Program-made: the position numbers and the translations under genes | In this document: piece after piece, positions 7,365 through 29,043 of the stretch | Layout of the letters: each line of letters begins with the position of its first letter | Numbering within the stretch: position 1 is the stretch's first letter | Notes under the pieces: generated by a model | Seen by the model: only the letters and a program-made list of their open reading frames with translations | Databases searched by the model: none | What the model was told of the DNA's origin: nothing | Virus record (IMG/VR): IMGVR_UViG_3300030376_000060 | Location: 1-29,043 of that record | DNA from: a virus | Taxonomy: Duplodnaviria > Caudoviricetes | Length of the DNA stretch: 29,043 nucleotides | Strand: one strand, 5' to 3'

Positions 7365-9260
7365 ATGGTAGAAGATAAAGTAGGACACAAACCTTATTTA
7401 GGTATTGAAATAAATTACGATAAAGAAAAAAAGCTAGACAAGTTTAGTTTAGATACATTAAGAGATAGATATTTCTGGGAGGAAGAAACACATGCACAAG
7501 AAGCTTTTGCTAGGGCTGCAGTATTTGCTGCCACCTTCAAGGGTGTTACGGATTATGAAATGGCTCAAAGACTGTATAACTACAGTTCCGATTGTTGGTT
7601 CATGTTTAGCACTCCTATACTTAGCAACGGGGGAACAACTCGTGGGCTACCTATTAGCTGTTTTCTCAATTATGTTCCCGATAGTCGTGATGGGTTATCT
7701 TCTCATTATGACGAAAATATTTGGTTGGCTAGTTCGGGGGGTGGAATTGGTGGATACTGGGGAGATATTAGGAGTAATGGTATTTCTACTTCTAGTGGGA
7801 GTCGTTCTACTGGAAGCATTCCATTCATCCATGTAGTTGATTCTCAAATGTTAGCCTTTAATCAAGGTGTAACTAGACGAGGCAGTTACGCTGCTTACAT
7901 GGATATATCTCATCCAGAGATTGAAGAGTTTATAAACATGAGAAAAGAGTCCGGTGGCGATATAAATAGAAAGTGTTTAAACTTACACAACGGTATTAAC
8001 ATCACTAATGATTTTTTAAAAGCTGTTAAAGACGATTCTGATTGGAGGTTAATAGACCCTAAAACAAATGAAGCTGTTAAAACTATAAACGCTAGAGAGT
8101 TATGGTGGCAGATTATCTATGCAAGAGCAGAAACAGGAGAGCCTTACATGATAAACATAGACAACTGTAACGATGCTTTACCCCAAGGACAAAAAGATTT
8201 AGGTTTAGAAATAAAACAAAGCAACCTATGTTCAGAAATAACTTTACCTACTAACGAAGAAAGAACAGCAGTATGTTGTTTGTCTAGTGTTAACTTAGAA
8301 CATTATGATGAATGGTCTAAAGACGATTACTTTATAAAAGATTTAATAACTATGTTAGATAATGTTCTACAACATTTTATTGAGAATGCTATTGACACAT
8401 CACAACTGGGAGAATATAATGCAAACTTTAAAAGATTTAAAGGATATGTCAAAGAAGGCAAAGAAGGCTTTACAAAAGCTGCTTATTCAGCTTACAGAGA
8501 ACGTTCTTTGGGATTGGGTGCGATGGGTTTTCATGCCTATCTACAATCAAACGGCATACCTTTTGAAGGAATCCAAGCTACGGGATTTAACTATCAAGCG
8601 TTTAAACATATTAAAAAGAAAGCTACGAAAGCTAGTGAGGAACTGGCTGATATTCGTGGTGAAGCACCTGATGTATCTGGTTCTGGGATGCGTAATGCTA
8701 ATCTCCTTGCCGTTGCTCCTAACGCTAGTAGTAGTATTATATGTGCTGGTACGTCTCCCTCAGTAGAACCTTATCGAGCAAACGTCTTTACTCACAAAAC
8801 TTTATCAGGTTCTTATCAAGTAAAAAATAAATACTTAGAAAAAGTTTTAAGAAGTAAAGGATTAAAAGGAGAAGAACTTGACAACGTTTGGAAAGACATT
8901 GCCGGTAAAAACGGTTCAATACAACACCTGTCTATGTTAGACGATACTGAAAAAGAATTATTTAAAACTGCAAATGAGATAAATCAAATATGGATTATTG
9001 AACATGCCCATAAAAGACAAGAGTTTCTTTGTCAGAGTCAGTCAATAAATTTATTTTTTGTGTTACCGAAAGCCACTGAAGAACAAGATGCTCACGATAC
9101 ATATATGCAATATGTAAATGATGTTCACTGGTACGGTATGCATAATTTAAAATCACTTTATTATTTTAGGTCTGATGCAGCTAGAGCAGCAGAGAATGTT
9201 AATATAAAAGTTCCACGAATAAAGCTAGATGATGTGGAATGTATAGCTTGTGAGGGATAA
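7365..9260 (+). CDS. nrdA: Ribonucleotide reductase class Ia alpha subunit, no ATP cone
   Basis: FSTPILSN; PISCF; SNLCSE radical Cys; VCCLSS; APNASSS; SLYY; C-terminal CIACEG. Confidence 0.97.
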   Translation: MVEDKVGHKPYLGIEINYDKEKKLDKFSLDTLRDRYFWEEETHAQEAFARAAVFAATFKGVTDYEMAQRLYNYSSDCWFMFSTPILSNGGTTRGLPISCFLNYVPDSRDGLSSHYDENIWLASSGGGIGGYWGDIRSNGISTSSGSRSTGSIPFIHVVDSQMLAFNQGVTRRGSYAAYMDISHPEIEEFINMRKESGGDINRKCLNLHNGINITNDFLKAVKDDSDWRLIDPKTNEAVKTINARELWWQIIYARAETGEPYMINIDNCNDALPQGQKDLGLEIKQSNLCSEITLPTNEERTAVCCLSSVNLEHYDEWSKDDYFIKDLITMLDNVLQHFIENAIDTSQLGEYNANFKRFKGYVKEGKEGFTKAAYSAYRERSLGLGAMGFHAYLQSNGIPFEGIQATGFNYQAFKHIKKKATKASEELADIRGEAPDVSGSGMRNANLLAVAPNASSSIICAGTSPSVEPYRANVFTHKTLSGSYQVKNKYLEKVLRSKGLKGEELDNVWKDIAGKNGSIQHLSMLDDTEKELFKTANEINQIWIIEHAHKRQEFLCQSQSINLFFVLPKATEEQDAHDTYMQYVNDVHWYGMHNLKSLYYFRSDAARAAENVNIKVPRIKLDDVECIACEG

Positions 9261-9261
9261 T

Positions 9262-9693
9262 ATGAAACACAGTATAGCAATGTTAATAGTTAGTATACTA
9301 GGTATTGGTGGAATACTCTATACAACTATCATAAATGCAGAAGTGTCTGGGTACGGAGACGTACATGGTTGTGGAGGTGAATGTTACAAAGAATATACTG
9401 TAAAGTATGGTACATTTACAGAACAACTAGAAGCAAAAAGAGTTGCAATGCAAACAGAAACACCTGCTGATAAAGGTGCTAAGATATATGTTAACTGTAA
9501 TATGTGTCACGGCATGAAAGGAGAAGGAGGTATTGGACCGAAACTATCTGGCAGTACGTCTATTGTAAAAATGTTAATGCAATATAAAAACGGAGAAACT
9601 AGAGGTGCACAGTCTGCTCTTATGTGGGGTCAAGCTGCTAACTTATCTTCTGAAGATATGAAAAATTTACAAGCTTACATTGATACTTTATGA
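9262..9693 (+). CDS. Exported monoheme cytochrome c (c553/c4-like)
   Basis: Hydrophobic signal/anchor ending INA-E; G.KIY..CNMCHG..GEGGIGPKL; YKNGETRG...LM..QA..LS.EDM..L.AYI.TL with the axial Met. ATG 9262 has a GAGGG SD. Confidence 0.9.
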   Translation: MKHSIAMLIVSILGIGGILYTTIINAEVSGYGDVHGCGGECYKEYTVKYGTFTEQLEAKRVAMQTETPADKGAKIYVNCNMCHGMKGEGGIGPKLSGSTSIVKMLMQYKNGETRGAQSALMWGQAANLSSEDMKNLQAYIDTL

Positions 9694-12586: not shown

Positions 12587-12951
12587 TAGTAGCTCCAAAT
12601 ACGAGGAGTAGCTCGTGAGTTATCCATGTCTAGATGAATAAACCTTGAAGCATGGTCTCCTTTTTGTGCAACTCCTATCCTATTAATACCCTCTTCCAGA
12701 GCTATTTTAACGAGTGTCATGGCTTGTTCTCCGTTGACAAGTATATCCATAGCCTTACCAGAAGAATGAGCTCCGGGGGTGCTCTTTTTGGCTTCTATGG
12801 GATGCTCTGGAGAACGATAAGCACTGCTTACTTTGAAAGGGAAACCACAACGTTCTCTAATCCTTTCAACTGTTTGCATAAATGCCCAGTCCATATCACA
12901 TAGACCGGTGTGTTTGCATTTTAGTTCATCTTCTGTAAAGTATTTATACAT
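12586..12951 (-). CDS. Endolysin, peptidase M15A family
   Basis: YFT.DELKC; SSAYRS; H..GKAMDI; FIHLD (Zn ligands H, D, H); PRIWSY. Confidence 0.9.
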   Translation of the reverse strand: MYKYFTEDELKCKHTGLCDMDWAFMQTVERIRERCGFPFKVSSAYRSPEHPIEAKKSTPGAHSSGKAMDILVNGEQAMTLVKIALEEGINRIGVAQKGDHASRFIHLDMDNSRATPRIWSY

Positions 12952-15900
12952 TATTTATCATTTACAAATGGGCTTACACCTTTTTCTACACTTTCTTTGT
13001 AATGCTTTCTAGCATTCCTATTCATTTGTCTACCAACTTTAGTTTCAAATATATTGTTTTTTTCAAAATCAAAGTTTTGTATAAACTCTATTTGTTTATC
13101 TGTGGTATATGGATTTAGTAGTGGATAAAAACCTTCTTCAGTATCTGGCTTACCAGCAGAAAGCTCTGTCATTGTTTTCCCACTAACATTATTTTTAATT
13201 CTACCTTTATGCCCTATCTGAGATTTTTTAGTTCCGTCTAGTCTTAGAGAGTTATCTACTTCTGTTCCTTCAAAAAAACCTAATCGTTCTTCATCATCTT
13301 GTAAAAGTTTGTAAATTAAAAACTCTTCTGGTTCAGTAGGAGTTTCAACATTACCACCCGTTGAGAAGTTAAAAATTCTACCATCTTTCAGGTTTACTTC
13401 AAATCTTTTATCAGTTGGTTTAGCTTTAGTAACATTTTTACCAAGAACTAAAGGACCGATTTGAATTACTTCATCTGCATTTACAACTGGCATACCGTCT
13501 GCTTTATCGTAGAAGTAACTAAATCTATATGGGTTCATACCTATTTGAGACCACTCAGGGTCATCCATATATTGTTGAGCTTTTTTAAATGCTTCGTCTG
13601 CAGTATGGTCTTTCCACAAACCATTTGCTCTAGCAAAAGTTGATTTGCTCTTATATGTTGCTATATTATATGCTGTTTCTGGGTTAGTATTAAAGATTAC
13701 ATCTGTTATCCATCCAGTATTTGAATATCCGACTGATTTACCTGACCTACCTAATCCTTCATGTATAGAAACAACCCATGTATCATAATTATTATATGAA
13801 GGTATATCTAAACGTAGACCTACTTCTGTTCCAGTCGAAAGCTTGGGTATGTCTGCTCCAATAACTCCTACTCCTTCTTTTATTAAACCAGCATTTAAAC
13901 TTCTAACCACATCAATAAGAGGAGTCATTTCAGGAACTTGTTTAAACGGAACAATAGGCATTAGTTTATTAACTTCATTCCTATATTCATCTACAGAAAT
14001 TTTATTCTTACTTAAATCTTCAGCAGCATTTGCTAGTTCTGGTATTCTTTTTCTTTTCTGAGGCAGTCCTGTATCTTTTTCTTTTATTTTTACTTCAGCT
14101 TCAGCTTTAGCTCTCCAAGCCATTACATCTTTGTTTTTTAAATTAAAAAATTTGAAAGCTGGAAGAGTATCATCTATTGGTTTTTTGGTTCGTTCTTTTT
14201 GTTTTAGCTGAAATTTTTCTTCTTTAGCAAGAGTCTGCTCGTCTACTTTTTTAGCTACATTTTCTGTGGCTTCTTCCACCTGCTCTTTTACTTTTGGAGG
14301 AACAAAGTCATCTATAGCTTTAACAGGAAAGTTTTTTAACACATAAAGTTCTGCTTCAGGACTATTTATATAACCTTTTCTTAAACTAGGAGTATCAATA
14401 ATTAAATCAAAACCTTCTTCTCTTAAAAACTTACCTGCTGCTCTTGCTATTCTTGCAAAATCTCCAGAGTCAACTTTTAAACTACCTTCGGCTCTCCCTA
14501 ATAAAACTCCTAAAGCATCAGATAAATCATCAGTTTCTGGAGTTGGGTCAAAGTTAATATCATTTAACTCAGCTAGTTTAGTTCTCATTTTTAACTTCAT
14601 ACTAGGAGTAGGGTTATCTAATATATATGGTTTTTGAGCAGAGCTAATATCTATTTCGTGTAGTCTATATTCTGATTCAGGAATAAGTAAAGATTTACCA
14701 TCACTTGCTTCTACTTTTGGAAATGCATCTGGAGAAGCATAAGTTTGAGCATGGAACTTATCAGAAGCAGCAAACACTGATTCCGTGCCTTCTGGACTGT
14801 CTACTATCCTACTTGTACCACCACGATAAACTTTATCTGGTAAAGCATTTAATAATTCTTCTGCAGGAACTTCTTTACCTTCTGCTATGTTTTTTAACAG
14901 AAATTTTAATCCAGCTCTAATTCCTCCTGCAACAAACTTTTTACGTCTTTGTAAATTATTTAACAAACCACCATAGGTTTTAGGAATTCTATCTTCTTGT
15001 CTATCTTTTAAAGTAGCTAAGACACCTTTTGAAGTTTCACTGTACGGTTCTCCTGTTACTGGATTAATTCTATCTGCAGGATTTTCTTCAGTGAAAGGCA
15101 CGTCTTCAGTTCCTGTTATTAATCCTCCAGTAGATTTAGTTAATCTACCTTTTTCTAAATCTTTTTCAGAGTAATCTAGGATTGGTAGACTACTAAACTT
15201 TTGTTCTTCAGTAGACAAAGCTCTTTTTATTTCAAAATAATCACTAGCTAAATTTTTATTATTTACCAACCTTTCTAATATACCAGAAGTTATTTTAATA
15301 GGAGTAAAACGATTACCTCCCATTAAATATTTTGCTTCAGGTTTAGAAAGTTTATCTTTCAAAACAGGATATGTATTTAAACCTAACCTTCTTGCAGCAC
15401 TTGTATGATTGTAAAATTCTCTATAAGTTTCATAATGTCTTGCTTGAATATCTTTATAATTTTCAATAAAATCTTCTTTAGATTCTGCATTACTAGCAGC
15501 GTTAGCTAATAACCCTCTTCTTGCACTTAAATCTCTACTGTAACTATTGGTATTCATTTCATATACATTTGTCATGTATTCTTTATTTAAAACTGTAACG
15601 CCTATACCAGTTAATAATTTAATAATTTCTTTACCTTTATGTATTTCTTGATTAAATTTAGTTTCATCTTTACCATAATTATTTACATATCTTTGTATGC
15701 TTTTAGCTGTTCCCGGAATAAAATTTTTCGTTAAATTTGCTACAAAAATTTGCATGTTAGCTGGGTCTAAAAGACCTGCAGCAGTATCATATACTTTAGT
15801 TTTATTAAAAGGATTTCTCATAAGTCTTCCTTCAGAATCTCTACCATTTCTAGCAATATAATCAATTCCTGTACTTGGAGTCATAGTAGTTCCGAAAAAT

Positions 15901-18900
15901 GGAGTTAGCATTTCTTGACTATAATCAAAAAATAATTGCTTTACATTTCCTTCTATATCATATCCTTCCTCAATAAGTTTAGGGATAAAACTTACTATTT
16001 TATTAGGGTAGTCATAAAAATCATATCTACTTGTATTAAAAATAAGAGGAGTTCCTTCTTTATTAATAGTTATAACTAAATTATCGTTTCTAGCATAAGG
16101 AGCTACAAAAGATTTTATATCTTTTTCTTGTTGTTCATCTATACCAGAAATATACCTATTAATAGCTTGATACCCAACTACAGCTCCTCCTCCGGGTACT
16201 CCATATTTTAGTCCATATTTTACAAATTCTCCACCTGTTCCTAATGTAGTGTAAGCAGCCATTCTTTTTGTTCCTCTTTTCAATATAATAGAACCTGCTT
16301 CATCAAAGCCCTCTTGCATTAAATCTTTACCAATTTTAATTTCTCGTGCAGCTTGAATACCGGTGGTAAAACCTATACGAGTTGATTCAGATAAGAAAGA
16401 AAAAAATTGAGAAATAAGTGGGTTGGCTCTTAGGAGCTGTAAGTTTTCAGGAACTATATCATAGTTAGGTAGTCCGCCAACAACTCTTCTAGCTGCTTCT
16501 CTTTCTATAGCTTCTTCACTTGTAAATTTATAAAAGCCATTATAGTTATCTGGTAAAGCATCATTAAACTTTTTAAGGTTTTTTAATTCTACTTCATATA
16601 AAAGAATTTTAAAAAAATCATCTTCTGCAATATATAAATCAGTAATACCGTCTATTGATTTTTTAACTTTATCTGATGCAGATTTTAATAATTTATTTCT
16701 ACGAACAGGCTCAGTTATAAAAGCAAAAGGACTTTTTAAACCATTATCTCTAACATCTTTCATTAGAGCATTTATTTCTCTAGCTATTGGACCTTTATTT
16801 AAAATATTATACCCTGCTAATTTTTCAACATATTTTTGTTGTTCTTTATCCGTTTTACTCGCTAAATCTCTAGCAACAACTTTAGCAGTACTAGTAAAAC
16901 TTTTTATACTTGGAAAAGCTCCTTGACCAAGTGTACCCATTGCTTGACCAAGAACGTTTTGAACATGAGTGTGTACGTTCCAAACAGTTGCAGCTTTTTG
17001 AGTAAATCCTTTTACAAGAGCCATTGCTTGATATAGCTGGTTAAAAACCCCACCTTCGCCATCAAACCATTGATTGTATTTTTGTTTTTCTGTAAAATAT
17101 CTAGCTAGTTCAGGACTGGTGTACTTTCCAGATAAAGCTCCAAAAGGTTGTATTATTTCTGCATCTGCTTTAGCTTGTTTACTTTTAAAGTCTTTTTTAG
17201 CTTGTTTTGTTGTCGGTATTTGTACGTTAAAACCTGCTCTAGGTTTATCGTGAAAATAAATATCCTTACCATTTTTATTTAATTCATCATAAAAATCTAA
17301 ATCATTTACAAACCTACTAATTTTATTTAAAGAAATACTTAAACTTTCTAAAGGATTTGTAACTTCTCCATAGTAATCTTTTATTTCTTGAGGAAGCTGT
17401 AGTTTTTTATCTAGTAAATTTCTATTAACGCCTTTATATTTATTTTGCCTTCGTACTATTTTTGCATATTTACCTTCTCCACCTGCAAGGTCTTCCATTC
17501 TTACTTCTACTTCATCGTTTATTTCAGCTTCAGTTAAAGGATTTTTTTTATTGGCATTTTTATTAATTAAATCTTGTCTTATAAAAGCTCTAGCAGCAGC
17601 AGTTACTTTGTCAGTAGGTATGTAATTAGGGTCTTCAAACTTTTTATAACTTGTTCTAACATAAATACCTAGTTGGTCTGAAACAATTTTTTTATCTTTT
17701 GCACTGATGTATGGGCTATCTAATAATAACCTACTTAAATTATCTTGTAAATCTCTAGCATCTAAAATAGCTTGTCTAGCTTCTTCTGGAAACTGATTTA
17801 ATTTTTTTATAAAAGTTTCTCTCTGGCTAACAGGAGCTTTTGTTCCTCTTGAAGTGACAATACCCGGAACTCTAAAATCAGTAAACAATAAATAATTTAT
17901 ATCTTCTAAAACTTTTTCACTGGTATCCTTGGTAGCTTTGTAAATTGTTTGTAAAGCACTATCGAAATTTAACATATTGTTTTCAATAGTTTTATCCCAT
18001 TTATTTTGTAGACCTTTAAATTTAAAATCGGTCTCAAACATTTTTTTAGTCATTCCACCTCTAGCTGTGAAAGTTCTGGCTAAAAAATTAGAAATTCTTT
18101 TTATAGCTGGTCTGTCTGAAAATTTAGAAAGACCTAAAAAATTATCTTCTAAACCTTCTATGTCTCCTAAATCCCCAGCTTCTTGTCTAGCTTTTAGGGC
18201 AGCTTCTTTACGAGGTTGTAAAGTTCGTTTTGCACTGTTTGTAGATTTAATAACTTTAAGAAAATCTTGACTTGCTTTTCTACCTTTTGATTTAATTTTA
18301 TTTAAAACATTTACTATATTATTTGCAACATTTTCACGTTGATTGTAAGCACCTTTACCTACCTTAACAGCACCACCTACAAGACCAGTTAAAAGTAGAC
18401 CTTCTGCTAATAAACCAATTCTATTTTCTAATTCACTTTTGTTTTCAGTAGATTTGATTGGGTCTAATAAATAGTCTTCTATTGCAGAAAAATAACCATC
18501 ATCATCTATTACTGCTCCTAGAGAACTAGCAAACATATTAACAAGATTTTCTTCGTTGGGATTAAGAGAAAGTTGTGCAGCTATTTCTCCTTGAGCAATA
18601 AATCCTGCAGTAGAAGTTGCTTTAGGTGCAGCTTTGGTAGCAGCTTGAACAGCTTTAAAACCTTTTAAAGGTAAACCAAGTTTGCCAACACCTATCATCG
18701 AGCCCGTAAAAGCAGTCATCTCTCTAATAGTTTGATTTACTCCTGACTCTGGTTCAGCTATATTAGTTACCAGTTTACCTTGACGTTCTTCTTGGATAAC
18801 GTTTTCTTTACCTACAAGATTACTATAAAGTGTATTTAAAAAATCTTCAGTTCTCGCTGCTTCTTTTTTAGTAGGTTCATCAAGAAGTCGGTAAAGCTCA

Positions 18901-19013
18901 ATGCCTTCTCTTACAACGTCAGAACCAGCTCCTATACTTGTTCTTTTAAATTCTTTTTTTTGGTCTTCACTAGCTCTATCCCATAGCTGCATGAATAGTA
19001 ATGGATTCTGCAT
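12951..19013 (-). CDS. Giant internal virion/ejection protein (2020 aa) with modular C-terminus including an ADP-ribosyltransferase-like domain
   Basis: Size and position at the end of the internal-protein block. About 1290 aa of helical body, followed by motif-delimited modules. Confidence 0.75.
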   Translation of the reverse strand: MQNPLLFMQLWDRASEDQKKEFKRTSIGAGSDVVREGIELYRLLDEPTKKEAARTEDFLNTLYSNLVGKENVIQEERQGKLVTNIAEPESGVNQTIREMTAFTGSMIGVGKLGLPLKGFKAVQAATKAAPKATSTAGFIAQGEIAAQLSLNPNEENLVNMFASSLGAVIDDDGYFSAIEDYLLDPIKSTENKSELENRIGLLAEGLLLTGLVGGAVKVGKGAYNQRENVANNIVNVLNKIKSKGRKASQDFLKVIKSTNSAKRTLQPRKEAALKARQEAGDLGDIEGLEDNFLGLSKFSDRPAIKRISNFLARTFTARGGMTKKMFETDFKFKGLQNKWDKTIENNMLNFDSALQTIYKATKDTSEKVLEDINYLLFTDFRVPGIVTSRGTKAPVSQRETFIKKLNQFPEEARQAILDARDLQDNLSRLLLDSPYISAKDKKIVSDQLGIYVRTSYKKFEDPNYIPTDKVTAAARAFIRQDLINKNANKKNPLTEAEINDEVEVRMEDLAGGEGKYAKIVRRQNKYKGVNRNLLDKKLQLPQEIKDYYGEVTNPLESLSISLNKISRFVNDLDFYDELNKNGKDIYFHDKPRAGFNVQIPTTKQAKKDFKSKQAKADAEIIQPFGALSGKYTSPELARYFTEKQKYNQWFDGEGGVFNQLYQAMALVKGFTQKAATVWNVHTHVQNVLGQAMGTLGQGAFPSIKSFTSTAKVVARDLASKTDKEQQKYVEKLAGYNILNKGPIAREINALMKDVRDNGLKSPFAFITEPVRRNKLLKSASDKVKKSIDGITDLYIAEDDFFKILLYEVELKNLKKFNDALPDNYNGFYKFTSEEAIEREAARRVVGGLPNYDIVPENLQLLRANPLISQFFSFLSESTRIGFTTGIQAAREIKIGKDLMQEGFDEAGSIILKRGTKRMAAYTTLGTGGEFVKYGLKYGVPGGGAVVGYQAINRYISGIDEQQEKDIKSFVAPYARNDNLVITINKEGTPLIFNTSRYDFYDYPNKIVSFIPKLIEEGYDIEGNVKQLFFDYSQEMLTPFFGTTMTPSTGIDYIARNGRDSEGRLMRNPFNKTKVYDTAAGLLDPANMQIFVANLTKNFIPGTAKSIQRYVNNYGKDETKFNQEIHKGKEIIKLLTGIGVTVLNKEYMTNVYEMNTNSYSRDLSARRGLLANAASNAESKEDFIENYKDIQARHYETYREFYNHTSAARRLGLNTYPVLKDKLSKPEAKYLMGGNRFTPIKITSGILERLVNNKNLASDYFEIKRALSTEEQKFSSLPILDYSEKDLEKGRLTKSTGGLITGTEDVPFTEENPADRINPVTGEPYSETSKGVLATLKDRQEDRIPKTYGGLLNNLQRRKKFVAGGIRAGLKFLLKNIAEGKEVPAEELLNALPDKVYRGGTSRIVDSPEGTESVFAASDKFHAQTYASPDAFPKVEASDGKSLLIPESEYRLHEIDISSAQKPYILDNPTPSMKLKMRTKLAELNDINFDPTPETDDLSDALGVLLGRAEGSLKVDSGDFARIARAAGKFLREEGFDLIIDTPSLRKGYINSPEAELYVLKNFPVKAIDDFVPPKVKEQVEEATENVAKKVDEQTLAKEEKFQLKQKERTKKPIDDTLPAFKFFNLKNKDVMAWRAKAEAEVKIKEKDTGLPQKRKRIPELANAAEDLSKNKISVDEYRNEVNKLMPIVPFKQVPEMTPLIDVVRSLNAGLIKEGVGVIGADIPKLSTGTEVGLRLDIPSYNNYDTWVVSIHEGLGRSGKSVGYSNTGWITDVIFNTNPETAYNIATYKSKSTFARANGLWKDHTADEAFKKAQQYMDDPEWSQIGMNPYRFSYFYDKADGMPVVNADEVIQIGPLVLGKNVTKAKPTDKRFEVNLKDGRIFNFSTGGNVETPTEPEEFLIYKLLQDDEERLGFFEGTEVDNSLRLDGTKKSQIGHKGRIKNNVSGKTMTELSAGKPDTEEGFYPLLNPYTTDKQIEFIQNFDFEKNNIFETKVGRQMNRNARKHYKESVEKGVSPFVNDK

Positions 19014-19022
19014 AATTAATTT

Positions 19023-20462
19023 TTATTGTTTATCTATATTTCTAAGTTCGTTTGCTCTAGCTTTTTTAATCTCTAGAAGTCTGCCGTGATTTGACATAAG
19101 ATTTTTATAATAAAATTCTTCAAAACTTGTCTTATCTTTAAATCTTGGATTATCTAAATCTTTTTCATAATTAATCGTAGCTTGTATATCGGATTCATTT
19201 GCAGGATTATTAAGATAAAGAGTTGCACTTTGCAGTGTACTTTCAAGCATCTGGTCTGGAGTATAACTAACTAATTGTCTTTCAAGTACAGGTATTAGTT
19301 TCGGGTCAGTTGATGGACTATTTAGCTTCATTACTGTTAATGCTACTTTTCTTATTTTTTCGTCAGGCTCAAGAACCATCAGATTTATAAATTGTTTTGA
19401 TTCTTCTTTGTAAGCAGCAAAAAGGTCATCTCCTTCTTGTGGAATTACTCCTCCAGTTGTAGGACTTCTTTTCCATCGTTCATCAAACAATCTTTGTGCC
19501 GTTTCTATTTTTTTTGTAAACTCATCTTTATTATTTCTGTTAAGATTTACTTTAGATAATGCTATTCCAAGTATTTCATCTGAAGTAATTCCTTCCTCAC
19601 CTTTCATTTTAGTAATACTTTGTTCCATTTGATTTAGTATTTCTGGACTTACCTTATCTTCATAATTAGTATTAATAAATTCTAAAGCTCTAGTTTTATC
19701 TAGCTTTGGTTGTGCTGCTAAATAACTAGCAACTGCAGGATTAAACAATTCTTCCTCTTCTTGCATCTCTACCACAAAGTTTGCTTTATCTACAGAACTT
19801 TGTAATTTTGCTTTTCTGTCATCAAACCAAGATGGAAATATACTATTTGCAGCAGAAGCTAGTAAACTAGATTGAGTTGGGTCATTTTCTAATCGAGCAT
19901 ATTCTGCTTTATAAGCATCATCGTAGGCTTTATTATACTCTTGAAAAGTTCTTGAAGTTATTAAAGGATTGTCCTTCATAGCTTCTAATTCTATTTTAGC
20001 TTGTTTTTTAGATTCTTCCCATAATTGGTCAGCTAAAAATTTAGCATTTGGGTCAGTTAGTTCGCTTTTATTTTTAAAAGTTACATTACTTTGCTTTATA
20101 GATTCGTCATTGTTGTAAATCATTTCAGCATAATCTACTATACCTTGTTCTGGATTTTTTAAATATTTATCATAAAAATCTCTATTTTCATTTTCTTTAT
20201 CATAAATAGTTTGTCTAGACGTTGATTCTTCTTTAAAAGCTGCATCTAATCCTGTAAGATTTTTTAATAATTTTTGTTGTAATTTTTTTTGTTTTCCTTT
20301 AAAAAAAGATAATAAACCTGATACTAAGTAACCTTGATTCCTTTCTTTTACATTACTACTTTTACCTCTTGCTAATAAACTATTAAATGTATTAAAGTCT
20401 TTTTGCATAGCTGCATCGACTACTGCACCACTAAAGAATTTTTTTCTTGAATCTTCTGACAT
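19023..20462 (-). CDS. Putative internal virion protein (479 aa)
   Basis: Charged helical protein within the block between tail and lysis genes. Confidence 0.65.
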   Translation of the reverse strand: MSEDSRKKFFSGAVVDAAMQKDFNTFNSLLARGKSSNVKERNQGYLVSGLLSFFKGKQKKLQQKLLKNLTGLDAAFKEESTSRQTIYDKENENRDFYDKYLKNPEQGIVDYAEMIYNNDESIKQSNVTFKNKSELTDPNAKFLADQLWEESKKQAKIELEAMKDNPLITSRTFQEYNKAYDDAYKAEYARLENDPTQSSLLASAANSIFPSWFDDRKAKLQSSVDKANFVVEMQEEEELFNPAVASYLAAQPKLDKTRALEFINTNYEDKVSPEILNQMEQSITKMKGEEGITSDEILGIALSKVNLNRNNKDEFTKKIETAQRLFDERWKRSPTTGGVIPQEGDDLFAAYKEESKQFINLMVLEPDEKIRKVALTVMKLNSPSTDPKLIPVLERQLVSYTPDQMLESTLQSATLYLNNPANESDIQATINYEKDLDNPRFKDKTSFEEFYYKNLMSNHGRLLEIKKARANELRNIDKQ

Positions 20463-20463
20463 T

Positions 20464-21213
20464 TTACACCACCTCTTCTTGCTTAGTTAGTAAGCTTCTC
20501 ATTTCTGGACCTTTATCTTTTATTTTATCTAGTAAATTTTTTCCTACCACTTCTTCTGCTCTAGCAACGGCTGTATCTTTATTGTCATCAGTAATTTGTT
20601 TTTTACTTCTAATATCTTCAGCAGCTTTTCTAAACTGTACTACTCGTTCATTTACTTCAACTTCATCAGCTTCACCAATATCATTAGGTTCGATATTATA
20701 TTCTATACCAGCTTCAGAACCTATTGACATTACAGTATACATGATAGGCTCTGCTAATAATAACATAGTGTCAGGATTTATTTCGCCATTAACAAACTTT
20801 GTATATAAGATTGTATTAGTAATATCAGTTACTGCAACTCCATCTGCTAAAGATTTTATAATACCTTTCATTGCTTCAGGGTTTAAAATATCTGCAGTGA
20901 TAGAAGTTAAAGCATCTCTAGGGTTAGCAAACTCTGCAGGTTTTTCCCAAGGATAAGGATTTTCAGGGTCATTAACTAATGATTGTCCGGGAATTGCTAC
21001 ACCTTTTATAGTATCATTTGCTAGTTGATTTAAAGCTGTTTCAGATGTTTTACCGTCAGCTATTAATTTAGTAGGTTCTTTGTCTATTGCATCTACTAAT
21101 TCTGATATATCAATATCTGCTTCAGCAACATCTGATACACTTTGTATCATCGCATCTGATAAATTGCTTTTAATAAATTTCCTATTTAAAGGATTTATTT
21201 TTTGTTCTGCCAT
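20464..21213 (-). CDS. Putative virion protein (249 aa) with IPGQSL...YPWEKP motif
   Basis: Tightly packed in the late operon; I recall this motif from marine podovirus late genes. Confidence 0.65.
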   Translation of the reverse strand: MAEQKINPLNRKFIKSNLSDAMIQSVSDVAEADIDISELVDAIDKEPTKLIADGKTSETALNQLANDTIKGVAIPGQSLVNDPENPYPWEKPAEFANPRDALTSITADILNPEAMKGIIKSLADGVAVTDITNTILYTKFVNGEINPDTMLLLAEPIMYTVMSIGSEAGIEYNIEPNDIGEADEVEVNERVVQFRKAAEDIRSKKQITDDNKDTAVARAEEVVGKNLLDKIKDKGPEMRSLLTKQEEVV

Positions 21214-22454
21214 TATGTCACCTGTATTGGTAATGTTTGTTGTCTAAGCAGGTCTCCGCCCATTGCATTCATATCTCCTGAACCATAAGTTAAAGTTTGA
21301 TAAGGTGCGATTGGGTCTATACCTACCGGTAGTGCAGGAAATTGAAGAGATTGACTAGCCATTCCTGCTCCATACTGTTGAGCTGTTGCTGGAATACCAG
21401 ACTGTATAGGGTCATCCGAAAGTTTATCTGAAATAAATCCTTCGGCTGCCGAGCCTAACATACCAGTTCCAAAGTCAAAAACTCCATCGACTACATTATC
21501 AGCACTAAAAGAATCTTTAATCTTATCAATTAATTGCCCACCAAACTCACCAAAAGATGGTTTAGCTGCTGGAATTTTAATAGTTTCAGAAAGCATATTT
21601 CTTACAGAATCTTGAGAAGCTACGCCATCAAAACCTATGTCGGCTGTAAAGTCAGTAATATTAGCAGCATCTAACTTTAATTCAGGCACAGTATAAGTAT
21701 TTAAACTTGATATAGGTTTGAATCCATCAGCAGTCTTAGTAAAAGTAGCACCTATTTCATCCATAAATACAGTGTCCGGGTTTAAAGGATTTACGTCTGT
21801 TAAAGTTCCTCTAGGAGTTGCTACTAATCCTGAATCTGCTATAGCTGCAGAAACATCTGTCGGTGCAGTCACGTCTGTGCTTATTTGCCCTGTTCCTGTT
21901 ATTTCTCTCATTTCTTGGTAGTCAGTTAAATTTTCAGCAAAATTATCACCATAAGCTGAAGCATCTAAAGTGCCGTCTGCTCCCATAGCATCTAATTTAC
22001 CTTGAGTCAAATCAAGACTTTCTCCTCCAGCTTTTGCAGCTTGAGCTTGTTTAATTTTTGAACCAATTCCAGCTAAAGCAGCTCCAGTTGCAGCACCGAA
22101 TGCTCCAGCTTTTAAAGCATCTTTAAAGCTACCACCAGCCATAACAACTCCACCTGCTCCCATTACTGCACCACTGATTGCACCAGTAGCCACGGCAGCA
22201 GCAGTTACTCCTAATCCTGATAAAGCAGGTAAAGCAGCAATAGCTCCGGGTAACATAACGGCTGCTGTTATCATTAAACCTAGCCGTACATATTTGTTTC
22301 TAGTTAGTTCTTTAACTCCTTTAAAAGTTTTCTTTTGAATTTTTTTAACTAAATTAACAGCCTTTTTAACTCCTTTAGCAACAGTGCTAATTTGTTTTTT
22401 AACACCACCATATATTTTTTTTCCAGCTTTTTTTATGTCATCAAGTATTCCCAT
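21213..22454 (-). CDS. Putative membrane-penetrating ejection protein (413 aa)
   Basis: Lys-rich amphipathic N-terminal helix followed by Gly/Ala-rich hydrophobic glycine-zipper segments; AGGAG SD. Confidence 0.65.
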   Translation of the reverse strand: MGILDDIKKAGKKIYGGVKKQISTVAKGVKKAVNLVKKIQKKTFKGVKELTRNKYVRLGLMITAAVMLPGAIAALPALSGLGVTAAAVATGAISGAVMGAGGVVMAGGSFKDALKAGAFGAATGAALAGIGSKIKQAQAAKAGGESLDLTQGKLDAMGADGTLDASAYGDNFAENLTDYQEMREITGTGQISTDVTAPTDVSAAIADSGLVATPRGTLTDVNPLNPDTVFMDEIGATFTKTADGFKPISSLNTYTVPELKLDAANITDFTADIGFDGVASQDSVRNMLSETIKIPAAKPSFGEFGGQLIDKIKDSFSADNVVDGVFDFGTGMLGSAAEGFISDKLSDDPIQSGIPATAQQYGAGMASQSLQFPALPVGIDPIAPYQTLTYGSGDMNAMGGDLLRQQTLPIQVT

Positions 22455-22463
22455 TATATTCTC

Positions 22464-24461
22464 CTATGTTACATCGTCTGATAACGCAACTATTAAACTT
22501 TCTAAACCTGTAGTATCTTTATAACTATTAGGGTCAGCAGCTAAAGCCGTATTTAATAAAGCAGAAATTCTTTGCTTTTGATTTTCTGCGTATCTAAAAT
22601 CAAAGTCAGCTTGGTCTCTAAGCTCTTGCCAAATAAAAGCTTGTGCTTGACTACTAAGATTAAAAGCATTTTGTGCATTTTGTAAATTAACTGCATTTTG
22701 TGCTGCAGTGTTTGCAGTATTAGTTTGTCTTCGCCATTGAATGTTACTAGCCTCAACGGCAGCAGCATTCTGTGCATTCCATTGATTTCTAGCAAAATCT
22801 TGATTAGCATTAAACTGGTCAATCTGTGTAGCTAGTTGTGAGTTTAATCTATTTACTTCTGCAGTTCTACCAGCATCTCTAGCTGCAGCAGCATTAGCTT
22901 GAGTAGCATTAAATTCAGAAATAGCATTTGTTTGAGCTGCATTAAACTGATTCATTTGTGCAGATAAGTTAGCCATAAATTGCTCTGTTTGATTTGTACT
23001 GGTAGCATTAAACTGTGCAGCAGCATTTTGCGAAGCTTGATTAGTTAACATTCTTTGCTGGTCTTGTTGAGCTCTTAATATATTTACTTGTTGCTCTGCA
23101 TTTAAATTGGCTAAGTCTACTGATAAAAAAGATTTTGCATTTTGTATAGCTAACTTTGTATTTGCATCAGCCTCTACAATATTTGCTTGAGACATTAATA
23201 CAGCGTTTTGAATAACGCCCTGTTGTTCTGCTGTAGCATTTTGTAATGAAACAGTTTGTAAAAATTTACTATTAGCTAAAGAAGTTTGTTGGTCAGCAGT
23301 AAATTGTGCTAAGTCTAATCTAAAAACATTGTTAGCATTTTGCAATGCTGTTTGTTGTTGAAACTGAGCATTAGCTAAAGCTTCTTGACTTATTAAAGTT
23401 TTTTCTTGTGCTACTGACTGTTGTATAGCTTGAGCATTAGCTTGAGCAATCGGAACTGAAGATTGTATTATAGCATTTATTAAATTATCTCTACCCACTG
23501 TAGAAGCTGACATACCTCTTTGAGCTAACATTTGCTCTACTGCTGTTACTGCAGGTTGTGCCCATGTAGGTATTTCACCATTTTCAATTCCTTTTAATAA
23601 AGTATCTAATTGATTACTTACTAAGGCTTCTTGTGGTAAACCTTCAATTACACCTCTCTGTGCTTCAGTAAAATCAGTTAGTCTATCTTCTAGTGCTTCA
23701 GGATTATCTCCTAATGCAGTAATTGTTGCTTCATCCAATCCAGCAGTTCTTAATTGTTTTTTAGCTCTAGTAACTCTTGCTAATGTTGTACCACTTGCTT
23801 GAGCTGCAGTAGCGATAGACTGTGGACTTATTTGACCTACTACTCTTTGAGCAACTGCTCCCTCTTCTACTTTTACTTTAGCAGGGTCAATAGGTTGTAT
23901 CCTATTTACTCCTGCAATTTTAGCAAGTTCTTCATCAGCTAGTGTTGTTTGTGCAGCAGTAACAGTAGGAGCTTGAGTTATTTGTGCAGGTTGAATAGTA
24001 CTAACTGGAGCAACTGTAGGAGTAGTTACAGTTTGCGGAGGTTGTATAGTTGTAACTTGTTCTGCAGGAGTTGTAGCAACTTGAGTTTGACCTACAGTAG
24101 TAGCCGTAGGCATTGTAGTAGTCTGCTGTGGCATATTAGCATCTACTTGTTGAACAGCAGGTACTTGACCAGCCACAGGAACTTGACCTGCTTTAGCTTT
24201 TTCTAATTCAGCTCTACTAGCTGCTTTTTGTTCTTCTGTCATTGCCATTTGTTGTCCTCGTACTTGTATTTGTCCTGTATTTATATTTAAATTAAGAGGG
24301 TCTGAACTATAGGCTTGAGCCATTTGTTGACTAAAGGAAGTTCCATATCCACCACTACCAGTAAATAATTTTTTTCTTGGACCATCTTTAGAAACTTGAC
24401 CACCTTTGCGATAGTCTTGACGTTCAGAACTAGTACCTGCTCTTTTGTACTTTTTCTTCAT
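22464..24461 (-). CDS. Putative DNA pilot/ejection protein (665 aa, Gln/Ala/Asn-rich coiled coil)
   Basis: Q/A/N-rich with QFNA repeats at 11-aa spacing; P/T/V/Q-rich linker. Confidence 0.7.
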   Translation of the reverse strand: MKKKYKRAGTSSERQDYRKGGQVSKDGPRKKLFTGSGGYGTSFSQQMAQAYSSDPLNLNINTGQIQVRGQQMAMTEEQKAASRAELEKAKAGQVPVAGQVPAVQQVDANMPQQTTTMPTATTVGQTQVATTPAEQVTTIQPPQTVTTPTVAPVSTIQPAQITQAPTVTAAQTTLADEELAKIAGVNRIQPIDPAKVKVEEGAVAQRVVGQISPQSIATAAQASGTTLARVTRAKKQLRTAGLDEATITALGDNPEALEDRLTDFTEAQRGVIEGLPQEALVSNQLDTLLKGIENGEIPTWAQPAVTAVEQMLAQRGMSASTVGRDNLINAIIQSSVPIAQANAQAIQQSVAQEKTLISQEALANAQFQQQTALQNANNVFRLDLAQFTADQQTSLANSKFLQTVSLQNATAEQQGVIQNAVLMSQANIVEADANTKLAIQNAKSFLSVDLANLNAEQQVNILRAQQDQQRMLTNQASQNAAAQFNATSTNQTEQFMANLSAQMNQFNAAQTNAISEFNATQANAAAARDAGRTAEVNRLNSQLATQIDQFNANQDFARNQWNAQNAAAVEASNIQWRRQTNTANTAAQNAVNLQNAQNAFNLSSQAQAFIWQELRDQADFDFRYAENQKQRISALLNTALAADPNSYKDTTGLESLIVALSDDVT

Positions 24462-28662: not shown

Positions 28663-29043
28663 TTATCTCCTGCCTGAAGGTATAAAGTCTACATAAAGTC
28701 CGTTAACTGTGTAGCTTGGTTTGGTATCATTACTAATAACTGTAAAATTATTACTTGTACCACTGCCTTGCAACGGTACTCTTATCATTGGATTGTTTTG
28801 TCCTGCAAATTTATTTGTATTAAATACTGCACCACCAAATAATGAAGGTGGATTTATAACTCCTAAGTCAAATAAATCTGTAGGTTGTTGTATATCGGTA
28901 CTGTTATAATCAAATTTAATCTGTACATCAGGTTCTACAATTCCTTCTGTTGCCATAGAAACTCTAAGATAGTGTAAAGTTTTTAAAGTTCCTAAATCAC
29001 CATAATCATAATTTGGTGTAGTATATCTTGCTAAAATAGCAAT
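28663..29043 (-). CDS. Tail tubular protein B / head-tail stabilisation protein, C-terminal part, 5'-truncated
   Basis: Frame is open to the window edge (IAILARYTTPNYDYGDLGTLKTLHYLRVSM...); Y.TP..D.GD...K pattern; precedes the tail fibre. Confidence 0.65.
   Translation of the reverse strand: MAILARYTTPNYDYGDLGTLKTLHYLRVSMATEGIVEPDVQIKFDYNSTDIQQPTDLFDLGVINPPSLFGGAVFNTNKFAGQNNPMIRVPLQGSGTSNNFTVISNDTKPSYTVNGLYVDFIPSGRR

Follow-up and report, generated by a model that had tools for sequence, protein, structure and literature searches.

The window considered here is a 29,043-nt (29 kb) stretch of DNA that makes up the entire record of a marine phage (IMGVR_UViG_3300030376_000060, Caudoviricetes). 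Genes for a T7-like primase and DNA polymerase were identified by reading the translations, and the window also encodes a nuclease, a single-stranded DNA-binding protein and a ribonucleotide reductase. Its minus strand carries a fibre gene, a block of five genes encoding proteins of 665, 413, 249, 479 and 2020 amino acids (aa; slots A–E, the last being referred to below as the giant) and lysis genes (Table 1). The subject of this work is a short peptide motif, R-x-x-[F/Y/K/L/M]-x-x-G-G, that recurs in this block. A syntenic slot A–E block was found at 71 loci, the window included (58 after duplicate removal), and 19 cultured phage records match the 665-aa protein, the best matches being pelagiphages HTVC103P, HTVC104P and HTVC115P, Pseudoalteromonas phage Slicky01, HMO-2011 and Roseobacter CRP phages. 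Gene position and cargo content suggest that the slot A–E proteins lie inside the virion, being packaged and then ejected. No Pfam or PHROG family could be assigned to the 665-aa protein; the 413-aa protein (hydropathy maxima at residues 60 and 88) weakly matches phrog_342, an internal virion protein (E 4e-4), and an Atlas search with the 249-aa protein returned only unnamed viral clusters.

Table 1. Late block and motif-bearing features of the window; scores are bits on the held-out motif profile.
Feature	Position	Strand	Score or basis
665-aa protein (slot A)	22464..24461	-	probably internal and ejected; tandem motif copies in a basic leader
Motif copy RQDYRKGGQV, 665-aa protein, residues 14-23	24393..24422	-	23.8 bits
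Degenerate second copy RKKLFTGSGG, 665-aa protein, residues 29-38	24348..24377	-	4.3 bits; close kin have clear copies there
413-aa protein (slot B)	21213..22454	-	Lys-rich amphipathic N-terminus and hydrophobic segments; no motif
249-aa conserved protein (slot C)	20464..21213	-	no motif
479-aa protein (slot D)	19023..20462	-	sporadic N-terminal copy RKKFFSGAVV at 20418-20447
Giant body, residues 1-1289	15147..19013	-	conserved slot; likely large ejection protein
Giant motif 1290 and conserved ~40-50-aa cassette (GGLV.G..VPFTKENPADR.NP.TGEPY)	14979..15146	-	alignment
Giant motif copies 1342 and 1357	14916..14990	-	11.4 and 11.5 bits
Giant module, residues ~1367-1590, likely ADP-ribosyltransferase fold (ART-PolyVal-like)	14244..14915	-	hidden Markov model
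Giant module, residues ~1640-1879, similar to mycobacteriophage L5 gp82	13377..14096	-	PF25735, E 4e-4, below cut-off
Giant motif copies 1880 and 1910 with short linker	13257..13376	-	6.4 and 16.5 bits
Giant terminal ~105-aa mobile module, added at motif 1910	12954..13274	-	presence/absence in kin

A sequence-only reading of the window had proposed eight copies of the motif in three minus-strand proteins, as a candidate cleavage or packaging signal. All eight stretches are present in the translations as described, but the literal pattern given for them matches only five; it has no match in the remaining 5,811 aa of the window, and a shuffled window yielded a mean of 0.15 matches, none of 500 shuffles reaching five. 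This pattern had been fitted after the fact to these very copies, and a profile was therefore trained on slots A and E with the window and 11 close kin excluded (198 sites; threshold 9.5 bits, with a shuffled rate of 0.5 per 10,000 aa). Six of the eight copies exceed the threshold on this held-out profile, including the giant copy at residue 1290 (16.7 bits) and the 479-aa copy at residue 6 (10.2 bits); for the two low scorers (giant 1880 and 665-aa residue 29), the sole support is the presence of clear copies at equivalent positions in homologues. One extra match (13.0 bits), in a tail protein encoded by the open reading frame (ORF) at 28663-29043, is probably due to chance. A profile built from slot A alone found giant sites at 3.8 versus 0.8 per 10,000 aa, and missed the giant copies of the window itself. 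The consensus of 519 distinct sites is R (88%)-x-x-[F 29/Y 25/K 24/L 11/M 5%]-x-x-G-G (86%)-x-[V/I/L], with ATGG, VTGG and AEGG as the most frequent four-mers.

Conservation was counted on de-duplicated loci, the figures for slots A and E including training sequences. Of 50 relatives, 49 carry the motif at the N-terminus of the 665-aa protein and 44 carry it twice or more, never past residue 75; in the tail of the giant, it is present in 53 of 54. A copy-like N-terminus occurs in just 5 of 55 homologues of the 479-aa protein, and there were no matches among 58 homologues of the 249-aa protein. The KxYGG of the 413-aa protein, which had been read as a weaker copy, was rejected as an instance of the motif (3/57 homologues; profile scores of -12 to -17). 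The motif is thus not a general label of internal proteins, being absent from slots B and C and from most slot D homologues.

Five longer related genomes (G001–G005) were used to test gene classes outside the training set, one giant being lost at a region border. A protein encoded between the portal and scaffold genes (the portal-scaffold protein) has 13 matches in 2,081 aa and small basic late ORFs have 5 in 6,634 aa, neither class having been used in training; shell and tail proteins yielded 1 match in 20,563 aa, and the scaffold, major capsid protein and portal none. There were 2 matches in the 25,048 aa of early-strand ORFs, which bears out the earlier remark that replication proteins lack the motif. 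Among the homologues of the portal-scaffold family listed, 115 of 120 carry it (42.5 versus 0.15 per 10,000 aa in shuffled sequences). In cultured phages, there are copies in gp54 and gp81 of HTVC104P, with a weak one in gp61, and in gp25 of HMO-2011. The motif is confined to late genes of the virion block.

The portal-scaffold protein (L077:11748-12821 in G001; P0001-P0120) is made up of short cassettes, EF-hand-like loops among them, that have been shuffled at the motif; after these comes a tape-measure-like GG...GEFV core, the first glycine of which has been replaced; an AlphaFold model of this protein was of low confidence (predicted local distance difference test, pLDDT, 57.8). The portal C-terminus (L077:9511-11721) bears a TGGGNIG.G.VP..GE element, also present in G002 and HMO-2011, that is similar to the beginning of the giant's cassette, apart from the missing Arg and aromatic residue. 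The small basic late ORFs (L061:980-1312, L042:1420-1827, L023:1816-2112 and L065:1282-1503) end in at least one motif and a conserved GEMP tail of about 15 aa, and resemble stand-alone internal proteins.

The giants span 1,292–2,309 aa and share a general layout: a body of about 1,000–1,400 aa, a motif, a cassette of about 40 aa, usually a second motif, and zero or more modules. A profile of the cassette retrieved 460 representative proteins at E≤0.001 and had no match in the PDB. In 69 long proteins (of 150 listed), 8 motif copies were counted in 84,317 aa upstream of the cassette and 23 in 16,531 aa downstream of it, the upstream rate (0.95 per 10,000 aa) being close to background; the cassette is C-terminal in 13 of the 69. 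The segments of the giants (158 in all) fall into 37 BLAST-linked families, and Pfam names 19 of 61 segments: cell-wall domains (five tail lysozymes, three GH73, one T4-type lysozyme and one LysM), three ART-PolyVal domains (one above cut-off), two methyltransferases (one above cut-off), three L5-gp82-like segments (below cut-off) and one weak domain of unknown function. These cell-wall hydrolases, ADP-ribosyltransferase-like domains and methyltransferases agree with the earlier description of the modules as effector-like.

In the window, the module at residues ~1367-1590 has no direct Pfam match. A hidden Markov model built from the Pfam-labelled ART-PolyVal modules and their BLAST neighbours detected the 74%-identical module of L009/L012 (E 2e-5), the window's own copy reaching only E 0.19. 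The L5-gp82-like module abuts it without a motif between them, and terminates in a motif copy in four lineages. An Atlas search with the terminal module found unnamed clusters only, an NCBIfam scan gave nothing above curated cut-offs, and a model of the last 740 aa of the giant (pLDDT 49.9, 9 sequences) had no structural match at Z≥5. In the L062 giant, an HNH-like segment (residues 1781-1862, read by eye) is flanked by motif copies. Where the residue before GG of a giant motif is hydrophobic, the stretch downstream is more basic (mean charge +1.6, n=31, versus -0.5, n=73; p 7e-6 in a post hoc test), recalling the slot B N-terminus; such a motif and its basic stretch possibly form a sorting signal.

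Module exchange was analysed with the motifs and cassette masked, in 49 giants with 61 shared-module intervals (nine near-duplicates dropped; the intervals are not independent). The start of 51 of the 61 lies no more than 60 aa beyond a motif (null 35.8±2.8, maximum 45 in 1,000), and only 7 span one (null 26.4±3.2, minimum 17). The terminal module of the window is missing from L003/L004, close matches to the window as far as motif 1910, and it directly follows a motif in all seven other giants that have it, with differing neighbours. Swaps of modules at the motif, as predicted from the window, are therefore the rule (51/61), but some joints lack a motif. At 193 sites, the Arg is encoded by both AGR and CGN codons and both glycines by all four codons, so that the constraint is on the peptide; the conservation at synonymous positions expected of a DNA recombination site was not found. 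GGT is mildly over-used at the first glycine (0.75 versus 0.50), and the motif DNA may also ease shuffling.

Comparable peptides occur in other tailed phages. The tape measure protein pb2 of T5 is cut after R1127 (PMC10038345); the sequence reads FVPR before the cut and AEGG after it, and then runs into a GE-containing stretch; 31/31 close and 4/5 distant homologues retain R-A-x-G-G. Lambda gpH is cleaved to gpH* and gpHC, a piece of about 14 kDa, at an unmapped site (PMC12617516). It contains FATGG at position 733, in the expected region, where a cut would give 12.5 kDa, and the lambda YATGG scores 11.4 bits on the profile. The GG...GEFV element found downstream in the relatives' portal-scaffold protein is shared with tape measures, this core alone matching them, namely those of Douge (E 3e-5) and, less strongly, JBD30 (E 0.07) and lambda (754-776, E 0.17); the JBD30 match corresponds to a predicted ‘hook’ at 1022-1066 (PMC11445458). 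The present system differs in having many copies in several genes, a podophage-type gene set, Arg at -6 and F/Y/K/L/M as the residue before the presumed cut (P1). In crAss001 gp45, which has several [F/N/K]-A-x-G-G joints, the model of the portal-bound segment covers residues 425-552 (PMC10172136), its first residue being the A of AFGG, preceded by N; the next site is AYGG after F559. In P22, the host enzyme OpdA trims the N-terminal leader from the ejection protein gp7, leaving Lys-Gly-Gly-Lys-Gly (PMC8402733); there, unlike here, the site is single, the cut falls one residue before GG rather than two, and the leader is dispensable.

The motif recurs at protein ends and module joints, it is conserved at the protein level, and a similar peptide lies at the T5 pb2 cut; it is therefore probably a cleavage mark for the release of swappable enzymes. 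In its full form, as a maturation cut before x-x-Gly-Gly, most likely made during assembly and separating cargo from anchoring pieces, this interpretation stands, in our estimate, evenly poised between right and wrong. The R-x-x-[F/Y/K/L/M]-x-x-G-G peptide would be cut just before x-x-Gly-Gly as the particle is built, the predicted register (P1 being the F/Y/K/L/M residue) following T5 pb2 and crAss001 gp45. Cutting would detach the injected enzymes from the large ejection protein, and also from short pieces that are their likely anchors in the head, the cassette of about 40 aa that follows the first cut presumably being such an anchor. Any gene inserted behind a motif copy would then be packaged and released, and the window's giant would yield pieces of 145, 5.6, 1.8, 58, 3.4 and 12 kDa. 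A wider proposal, that a single cut-before-x-x-Gly-Gly code operates across tailed phages, in T5 and lambda tape measures, crAss001 gp45 and marine podophage ejection proteins, turning internal proteins into polyproteins, is tentative and rather unlikely to hold.

Several observations weigh against cutting. The P1 column is broad, variants at the second glycine (GT, GA, GD) persist, and the motif is absent from phiM6 homologues. The T5 site scores <5 bits on the profile, lacks Arg at -6 and has Arg at P1, a residue found in that column at 1% of the 519 sites. The crAss001 authors regard gp45 as a single uncut chain, with no mention of the motif in the available text (PMC10172136), and a model beginning at A425 is equally compatible with a bound motif and with a cut end. 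When profiles were compared, neither the cassette against the portal-scaffold core nor either of these against gp45 425-552 gave a significant match; the connection with T5 and crAss001 therefore rests on four or five residues and the register. The window and L001 diverge near residue 1586, where there is no motif, and a methyltransferase bounded by motifs in L036 is fused without one in L001/L009. Finally, no protease was recognised by Pfam and PHROGs in 48 proteins of G001-G003, or among the genes common to the five genomes, several core genes being unannotated. The cleavage role proposed from the window does have support from outside, in the T5 cut and the gp45 model boundary.

The candidates rejected as proteases were a SprT-like gene (only in G001, on the early strand), the S74 chaperone of the fibre and the M15 endolysin. 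The portal-scaffold protein is located where head proteases often sit but showed no sign of catalytic function. HExxH occurs only in optional modules of 6/63 giants, and not in the window's five proteins or in slots A-D. As no conserved phage protease was recognised, the protease is likely to be a host enzyme or an unrecognised phage protein. T4 internal proteins carry a short capsid-targeting signal and are processed by the prohead protease. The likeness suggested to that system extends to a short signal on internal proteins; here, the scaffold and capsid proteins lack the motif, which speaks against T4-type head proteolysis, and no prohead protease gene was recognised in the five genomes. 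Polyvalent phage proteins, for which Iyer et al. (2017; PMC5512222) allow processing after injection, resemble the giant in being large and probably injected, with swappable ART-PolyVal, methyltransferase and peptidoglycan-hydrolase modules; the giant likewise combines variable effector domains in varying arrangements. It has no built-in zincin metallopeptidase, a common but not universal feature of such proteins, and a motif at the junctions is not described in the available part of that paper. By analogy, the giant would work like a polyvalent protein processed like a tape measure, minus the zincin. No description of the motif was found among the matches listed in full-text literature, a coverage that leaves out most subscription papers; the ‘GG motif’ of PMC2248197 belongs to HNH nucleases.

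The motif might instead be an uncut docking tag, x-x-G-G-x-V binding a pocket of the portal, scaffold or core, with tandem copies adding avidity for loading into the prohead. The tandem copies, 8 residues apart, that 44 of 50 homologues of the 665-aa protein carry would suit this role, as would the small basic late proteins, which are little more than motifs and a 15-aa tail, and the GG.I.G..VP..GE element of the portal C-terminus, kept without Arg or the aromatic residue in 119/120 close homologues. There are also precedents, crAss001 gp45 binding the portal wing from the motif onward (PMC10172136) and P22 ejection proteins being loaded via the scaffold (PMC8402733). However, most 413-, 249- and 479-aa homologues in the same block lack the motif, a loading tag is not needed between every cargo module of one chain, and the T5 cut falls in the same register; docking without cutting is thus an unlikely explanation, albeit one with a real claim.

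Exchange of modules and short cassettes at the motif, together with the over-use of GGT, could also be explained by a flexible hinge with neither partner nor cut, the DNA of which supplies short homology for cassette shuffling. This is improbable, given the mixed AGR and CGN codons and variable third positions, the conservation of the motif at the very start of the 665-aa protein, a place into which no module is swapped, and the retention of Arg at -6 in 88% of sites. More improbable still is the release in the host proposed by the sequence-only reading, in which the proteins would be packaged whole and a protease of the new host cell would cut them once they had been injected. The failure to recognise a phage protease, the differing compartments needed by periplasmic hydrolases and cytoplasmic transferases, and the latitude left by Iyer et al. 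would all be consistent with such timing, but cleavage of the T5 and lambda tape measures takes place in the course of tail morphogenesis (T5 preprint; PMC12617516), and that of P22 gp7 before assembly (P22 channel preprint).

A cytochrome c-domain gene (PF00034) sits between the ribonucleotide reductase subunits of the window (9250-9693, plus strand), and G001 has a NifU-like gene. Past the lysis block, G003 (L083:984-3956, L085:16608-18359) carries CsgF, CsgG, FecR-domain, CHASE2-adenylate cyclase and Hsp20-like genes, a set similar to that of G004 and G005.

The motif bears on the question of how large modular phage proteins pass through a narrow tail and deliver enzymes, and on the site and enzyme of lambda gpH cleavage (PMC12617516). 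It yields residue-level predictions for the cultured phages T5, lambda, crAss001 and HTVC104P, and may be usable for loading proteins into phage particles. If the code were shared, the gpH cut would lie at F733, and crAss001 gp45 would be present in the head and tail as separate pieces rather than one stretched chain. For abundant marine phages, with 460 cassette-bearing clusters, the motif provides a rule for parsing cargo modules.

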